Assembly (NCBI GenBank): GCA_964016885.1
Contig: OZ024751.1
Coordinates: 17,794,001-17,858,000, forward strand
Origin: Eledone cirrhosa
Taxonomy: Eukaryota
Reading direction: 5' to 3'
DNA: 64,000 bases
Below, piece by piece: positions 55,131 through 55,445 of this stretch. A program made the position numbers and the translations under genes. Position 1 is the first letter of the stretch. Every line of letters begins with the position of its first letter. Below the pieces are notes generated by a model. It was not told the DNA's origin, did not search any database, and saw nothing but the letters and a program-made list of their open reading frames with translations.

Positions 55131-55137
<7 letters not shown>

Positions 55138-55445
55138 AAGTAAAATAAAAAGTCAAATGTTTAAAATTTAGCTTCGATTATTACTGCTATATATATTTCG
55201 GTGACAGCCATCTTTGGCTGCGACCTCTTCAGGCAGTCCGAATTAGTGTGGTAGAGGTCACAGCCAAAGATGGCTGTCACCGAAATATATATAGCAGTAA
55301 TAAACGAAGCTAAATTTTAAACATTTGACTTTTTATTTGACTTTATTTTACATTATTCCGGAGTAACCAAACCAACCTGCGCCCCTCGTCGAGTGCTCCA
55401 GCCTGCATACTGAGGTGTTGGTATACAACCAACATATACTCAAAA
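55131..55445 (+). mobile_element. Fold-back family H: ~98-bp arms, ~24-bp centre, ~95-bp tail
   Basis: 55131-55228 mirrors 55253-55350. Confidence 0.9.
55183..55237 (-). ncRNA. Type I hammerhead ribozyme (family H)
   Basis: ACTGC-CTGAAGA-GGTcgCAGCCaaagatGGCTGtcACC-GAA-ATATATAT-A-GCAGT. Confidence 0.88.

Follow-up and report, generated by a model that had tools for sequence, protein, structure and literature searches.

Element H, a 314-base insert in a TA repeat of the Eledone cirrhosa genome, is built of a pair of inverted arms, only one of which has a tail, and contains a hammerhead ribozyme motif. It lies at 55132–55445 of the 64-kb stretch analyzed here, hereafter called the window. It probably represents the 3′ end (pseudo-LTR) of a Penelope-like retroelement, inserted in 5′-truncated form and now dead, and the insertion itself probably arose from two reverse-transcription events primed on opposite target strands. 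The parts of the element and its flanks are the following.

55098–55131, unstranded: left flank, (TA)n target preceded by (CA)n, read from the sequence.
55132–55228, minus strand: tail-less inverted arm, 97 nt, with its inner boundary on (TA)n, from self-BLAST and sequence.
55183–55237, minus strand: complete type I minimal hammerhead motif, from descriptor and fold, with a predicted cut after AUA, between 55188 and 55187.
55189–55196, minus strand: ATATATAT, the palindrome that forms stem III in the complete hammerhead, from the sequence, with no length variant listed in reads.
55229–55252, minus strand: 24-nt spacer, the 5′ continuation of the tail-less arm, holding the 5′ strand of stem I and the start of the core, from the sequence.
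55253–55256, unstranded: AGAG, 4-nt microhomology at the inversion junction, through which 27 X1 contigs and one X4 contig align before leaving.
55253–55349, plus strand: arm that bears the tail, 97 nt, in which the hammerhead is represented by its 3′ half (stem II, GAAA, stem III at 55285–55292, 3′ strand of stem I), from self-BLAST and sequence.
55350–55445, plus strand: 96-nt tail of one arm only, with TYGAGTRC at 55389–55396 and a predicted AC-rich stem-loop at its end (55412–55441), from BLAST and fold; copies end at 55443–55445 on (TA)n.
55446–55526, unstranded: right flank, (TC)n and then (TA)n, read from the sequence.

In self-BLAST, 55132–55228 and 55253–55349 are 94/97 identical as inverted copies and differ at three sites. 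The tail belongs to only one of them, which bears out the asymmetry described in the earlier note. Both flanks being (TA)n, a target-site duplication is illegible. The 64-kb window holds no second copy of this family; the next-best BLAST match has an E value of 0.053.

The complete hammerhead claimed earlier for the minus strand at 55183–55237 was confirmed by both descriptor and fold. Its parts are stem I ACTGC (55237–55233), core CTGAAGA (55232–55226), the stem II hairpin (55225–55200), GAAA (55199–55196), stem III ATATATAT (55196–55189), A at H17 (55188), and stem I GCAGT (55187–55183); the CUGANGA core, the GAAA box, and a UH cleavage site are thus present in order. For the 55-nt motif, a fold containing stems I and II is predicted at −17.9 kcal/mol, with a z score of −3.3, a value that is equaled by 1 of 200 shuffles. 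In the predicted fold, helix I is open and helix II is closed, and a lower stem I (TTCG/CGAA) is predicted to extend the structure. A strict hammerhead descriptor found six loci in the microsatellite-masked window and none in each of 100 second-order Markov simulations. No Rfam hammerhead model reached its gathering score in the 64-kb window, and none was among the eight Rfam matches at E ≤ 10 on the element H stretch, which leaves descriptor and fold as the basis for calling a hammerhead; the Rfam models presumably miss minimal variants of this kind. A G-U pair replaces the usually conserved G10.1-C11.1 pair in ~55% of reads (position 55200: 2,007/3,668 in X11 and 1,651/2,950 in X12). An ATG in loop II opens only 16 codons.

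Element H belongs to a large, moderately diverged repeat family. The stretch 55131–55445 was compared with four of 13 public runs (contigs of X1 and X4, reads of X11 and X12) at a likeness of at least 80%, with differences counted from 3%; 55131–55156, and hence the inner boundary, was skipped. X4 carries another species label, and X11 and X12 are RAD libraries from one study, in which digestion shapes the depths. Matches were found in 2,566 of 17,142,217 contigs (X1), 27 of 8,254,286 contigs (X4), 6,347 of 12,467,656 reads (X11), and 5,417 of 12,785,554 reads (X12), the reads being mostly 90–95% alike. Behind 55443, the tail runs into (TA)n in 272 and 188 reads, and molecule ends lie at 55445; copies of the family are thus dispersed and share a 3′ end that is fixed on (TA)n. 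In other copies it extends at least 30 nt further upstream. Read-end pile-ups at 55165, 55244, 55313, and 55316 were rejected as biological signals, as all fall on AATT sites and look like the work of a four-base cutter. The alignments of 453 and 312 reads and of 11 contigs break off just before 55182, and the consensus there, with an agreement of only 0.72–0.76, suggests a subfamily with ~8 extra nucleotides on the 3′ side of stem I. These would be complementary to loop II, possibly forming a pseudoknot.

A fold-back artefact of library preparation or assembly is conceivable, given that no compared contig spans the whole stretch 55131–55445 and that junction reads are few. It is scarcely credible, however, since the arms differ at three sites, at two of which ~98–99% of family reads have the other arm's base, as expected of later mutations, and since some 20 further elements of this kind, with an arm divergence of 4–25%, lie in the window.

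The inversion junction is private to this copy. Read depth falls from 3,623 and 2,948 at 55238 to 4 and 11 at 55254 (X11 and X12, respectively), and X1 depth at 55254 is 274 vs 165,332 at 55248 and 518,758 at 55268. Loose ends of other copies lie behind 55251 (18 contigs), 55253 (14 + 2), and 55256 (27 + 1), and one X1 row shows a different junction, where 55256 plus 20 nt is joined to 55222, inside stem II. The palindrome was therefore made anew at insertion and did not spread as a unit. The AGAG at 55253–55256 can be assigned equally to the upstream sequence and to the beginning of the arm with the tail, so the break is fixed only between 55253 and 55257, either within the core or at the foot of stem II. 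The proposal that the tailed arm begins mid-core at AGAGGTC (55253) is thus too narrow. A mid-core start as a rule for the family is ruled out by the junction depths in the reads; both arms of elements C, D, and J extend beyond the ribozyme.

These depths also bear on the possibility that the element is a MITE or a hairpin of microRNA type and multiplies as a single fixed palindrome. The long, perfect hairpin and matches to microRNA models would suit it; these Rfam matches were rejected, being below gathering thresholds and structure-only. The reads largely refute such a unit, as the junction is nearly absent from other copies and another junction exists. The tail lies outside the inverted repeat, whereas a MITE is one unit bounded by terminal inverted repeats. 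We attach next to no weight to this reading.

In the favored mechanism, an element-encoded endonuclease would nick both (TA)n strands. One strand would then prime cDNA at the outer RNA site (55445), copying tail and arm, and the other would prime at the inner site (55349), omitting the tail and copying through the uncut ribozyme to ~55256; the two cDNA ends would be joined via the 4-nt AGAG microhomology. Sequence lying 5′ of the predicted cut site is present in both arms, indicating that the template RNA was uncut. In a read-through RNA of the inserted copy, the ribozyme would be enclosed in a 97-bp hairpin, so that this copy is predicted to be inactive; the full-length folds are predicted at −169 and −174 kcal/mol.

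The main rival to the two-primer mechanism keeps the Penelope-like origin and invokes self-priming, in which a tail-less cDNA folds back via AGAG/CTCT and copies its own arm, and a second cDNA or an antisense template adds the tail. The single microhomology at the junction fits such snap-back priming equally well: 55253–55256 is complementary to 55225–55228, with a 24-nt loop between them. The spacer belongs to the tail-less arm in 6/6 decidable elements (A, B, H, E4, F1, and G2) among the 21 tabulated in the window, and self-priming has been proposed for palindromic junctions (PMC3846280). However, fold-back alone would hit (TA)n at the inner boundary and leave the tail unsupplied, requiring a second event, and spacer loops as long as 100 nt (element B) and 141 nt (element A) occur. 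In addition, two-strand priming has been demonstrated in vitro for PAc, the Poseidon element of Anolis carolinensis (PMC11167929). Self-priming is accordingly judged unlikely, though it deserves to be taken seriously beside the two-primer mechanism.

Stem III, ATATATAT, is an exact palindrome with a computed self-duplex energy of −3.2 kcal/mol, consistent with the earlier claim that it is self-complementary and suited to cleavage as a dimer; such cleavage is predicted for the source transcript. Its length was expected in the earlier note to be conserved across copies, and the reads agree. No length variant at ≥3% appears among ~3,600 and ~2,900 reads, and the depth over 55186–55196, ~3,580 in X11 and ~2,870 in X12, shows no dip. 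The full indel table has only two rows, both in a T-rich tract at 55330–55331 (~18–24% of reads). Four AT units are too few for frequent slippage, and this constancy is for that reason a weak test. Among the 40 of 78 substitution rows listed, none falls in the core, stem I, or stem III; those in the motif are in loop II (55212 and 55213), at C11.1 to U (55200), and at 55221, the last being private to this copy.

Stem III also equals the (TA)n target repeat, and it had been speculated that its (AU)4 anneals to the nicked target, guiding or priming insertion. The identity of the two sequences and the length kept in reads are in favor of this idea. Nevertheless, it is very improbable, because four other hammerhead families that adjoin (TA)n, namely A, B/C, D, and J, have ATGCAT, ATATGTAT, ATGATCAT, and ACAGACTGT, respectively, all self-complementary and none of them (TA)n. 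Hydra-clade elements likewise favor (TA)n with stems such as ACTC-N-GAGT, as far as the available part of PMC8557442 indicates. Moreover, stem III lies ~56 and ~150 nt from the two element-target junctions, and no pile-up of molecule ends at stem III is found among the read rows listed. The match to (TA)n would thus be incidental, the palindrome reflecting the supposed dimer cleavage in the source transcript. The stems of complete motifs in the window, ATGCAT (A), ATATGTAT (B and C), ATGATCAT (D), ACAGACTGT (J), and ATATATAT (H), are self-complementary except in one decayed D copy; the trait common to the hammerhead families is self-complementarity rather than likeness to the target.

The window is rich in microsatellites, with 22–54% GC and 258 tandem-repeat rows. 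Between 735 and 63590, 21 arm-arm elements of about ten families were tabulated from self-BLAST, forming a dense set of asymmetric palindromes in (TA)n. A one-sided tail of ~36–145 nt is present in 20/21, with J being tail-less. Among 12 copies checked, (TA)n flanks both sides in nine, one side in two, and neither side in one. The tailed arm starts 4–31 nt before the GAAA box in 14/21 elements. The exceptions are C, D, and J, which run at least 115 nt past the box, I1, which is ambiguous, and E1, I2, and K, which have no ribozyme box in the arm. Tail plus arm mostly measures 110–200 nt with or without a ribozyme, and limited processivity could therefore explain the clustering of junctions equally well. 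Where the tail-less arm meets the target in A, B, D, E, F, G, I, and K, at the inner boundary, this end of the RNA often carries a short TA-like tract (for example TATAT in B). This tract, which is weak in family H and stands against an AT-rich background, could pair with the target primer.

Several other sequences of the window resemble hammerheads. Families D and J (53446–53983, 41198–41460, 56499–57218, and 61173–61391) have an extra U before stem II, which places them outside the first descriptor, and resemble Hydra-clade motifs in the accessible supplement of PMC8557442. Family F (1557–1749, 17323–17533, 27966–28198, and 62085–62302) combines GAAA and a GUC site with a long stem III whose loop is palindromic, and both arms end before any CUGANGA core in 4/4 copies. 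Families E, F, and G are hammerhead-like candidates. Further hammerhead-like cores with decayed or missing stems lie at 60038–60070, 61417–61445, and 57700–57830. The window also contains a LINE-like reading-frame remnant (30042–33284; longest piece 419 aa, 32025–33284), a tRNA-like sequence at 25003–25073 that scores 31.4 bits, is the only Rfam match of the window to reach its gathering score, and is possibly a SINE head, and a minisatellite at 35723–36891 with a 57-bp unit in 20.5 copies (98% matches). A 190-nt SINE-like repeat, which we take to resemble an octopod tRNA-derived SINE, is abundant, occurring at 9088–9275 and in at least ten more places.

The tail of element H contains TYGAGTRC, which occurs 17 times in the window (at 778, 1611, 8433, 17479, 19729, 20316, 28145, 40714, 40926, 41282, 44924, 53530, 55389, 57955, and 62161, among others) vs a simulated mean of 5.0 and maximum of 10, in a comparison for which the motif was picked post hoc and the copies are non-independent. 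Sixteen of the 17 occurrences are inside elements of families E, F, B/C, D, and H. The motif is near-palindromic, and an upstream ACTC, often present, could pair with it. TYGAGTRC is thus a candidate binding site for the reverse transcriptase, and its presence in five families is a lead only. Inspection by eye spoke against a conserved reading frame across the motif, as at most three codons are shared.

A bolder proposal is that the hammerhead serves insertion. Two RNAs would pair via the palindromic stem III and offer two templates to a dimeric reverse transcriptase, the tail element (TYGAGTRC and upstream ACTC) would bind the enzyme and set the two start sites, and the folded ribozyme would stall synthesis. 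We consider this combination doubtful. If it is true, stalling at the folded ribozyme would make inversion junctions accumulate 4–31 nt before the GAAA box, the ribozyme of Penelope-like elements would gain a role without cleavage, and the many (TA)n hairpins here would be a readable record of Penelope-like priming. In the literature searched, made up mostly of papers outside subscription, no report was found of junction clustering at the ribozyme, ~100-nt tails, or a shared tail motif.

The assignment to Penelope-like elements is suggested by four structural features found in element H and its family: an inverted, 5′-truncated terminal repeat with a variable junction, a tail at one end, a hammerhead in the terminal repeat, and a fixed 3′ end on (TA)n. 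The defining trait of the group is an ORF. No reverse-transcriptase or GIY-YIG frame was recognized by eye among the 138 ORFs of the window, where only the LINE-like remnant was found, and exact-pattern scans of metagenome contigs and viral contigs for an autonomous partner gave no match. The 96-nt tail, the G-U pair at 55200, and the missing Rfam match likewise count against the assignment. A comparison of family H with published Naiad, Chlamys, and Hydra consensus sequences was set aside, as the short-motif matches fell in unrelated coding sequence.

The available text of the published accounts describes much the same arrangement. An inverted, 5′-truncated copy beside the pseudo-LTR and a 30–40 bp tail at one end are reported in PMC8557442, together with a (TA)n preference in Naiad and Hydra and canonical hammerheads in Hydra and not in Naiad; element H, with its complete motif, differs from Naiad in this respect. 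The same layout of inverted copy and one-sided tail, with a (TA)n bias, is given in PMC3846280. Element H thus shares with Penelope-like pseudo-LTRs (PMC8557442, PMC3846280, and PMC8969392) the inverted partial copy adjoining a direct copy, the tail at one end, the junction overlap or microhomology, the microsatellite target, and the hammerhead in the repeat. It differs from them in having no ORF between the repeats, an insert of 314 bp, and a tail of 96 nt vs 30–40 bp. The Hydra clade resembles it in its (TA)n preference and a canonical hammerhead near the 3′ end (PMC8557442 supplement), as does the Neptune clade in its microsatellite bias and a hammerhead at the same place. Some Hydra 3′ ends have, by eye, a GAG-(C/T)-A-(C/G) motif resembling that of the tail. 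No sequence match to the family H hammerhead was found among the Hydra motifs listed in the accessible part of that supplement.

In vitro, PAc cuts and extends both strands, two start sites delimit its tail, uncut RNA serves as template without a need for cleavage, and an AC-rich stem-loop lies at the start (PMC11167929). Element H resembles PAc in its AT-rich target, its uncut template RNA, the AC-rich stem-loop at a start site, and two 3′ ends that mark off a tail downstream of the hammerhead; compared with PAc, it has a longer tail and no ORF starting in stem II. For the minimal type I hammerheads of Penelope-like elements in metazoans, PMC4209133 describes a palindromic helix III, weak cleavage as a dimer, and opposite-strand pairs spaced 100–700 bp apart. 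Element H has in common with them a 5-bp helix I, a long helix II, a palindromic helix III and loop 3, and the opposite-strand pairing. It differs from these in the lack of an extra nucleotide between A9 and G10.1, in G10.1-U11.1 in ~55% of reads, and in the extended stem I. According to PMC8557442, it is unclear what hammerheads do in Penelope-like elements. Penelope-like elements have been recently active in Octopus vulgaris, in an account whose accessible text does not mention hammerheads (PMC13282606).

Alternatively, element H could be a non-coding unit of non-LTR retrozyme or SINE-like type, mobilized only in trans, and would then not be the end of a coding element. Non-LTR retrozymes (PMC7229834 and bioRxiv 10.64898/2026.07.22.740005) are, as element H is, non-coding, with a type I hammerhead and a weak helix III, and the preprint, in its available part, argues that retrozymes stem from pseudo-LTRs. 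No ORF was found, and the window contains solo hammerhead units of family B of ~180 nt (2149–2327, 52301–52493, 62895–63086, and 37160–37355), three of which have a common 5′ end and no tail; these tail-less units may represent a SINE-like or retrozyme-like form. On the other hand, the locus of element H shows inverted arms and a tail and lacks the head-to-tail tandem hammerhead units of retrozymes, family H continues at least 30 nt upstream, and this possibility differs from a Penelope-like pseudo-LTR solely in the source RNA. We therefore consider it quite improbable, and an origin from a Penelope-like pseudo-LTR remains the preferred reading.

Element H is real, was correctly described, and is mostly ordinary, being one more copy of a largely known kind of element. 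Its main traits have all been published for Penelope-like elements: the inverted 5′-truncated copy, the tail at only one end, insertion into (TA)n, and a palindromic stem III of the dimer type. Short hairpins such as this one are easily mislabelled as MITEs or microRNA precursors, and with 21 arm-arm elements tabulated in 64 kb, 20 of them tailed, they are dense in this genome. The thousands of independent junctions here would let the effect of the ribozyme on reverse transcription be tested directly, and would also discriminate between one-template and two-template inversion.
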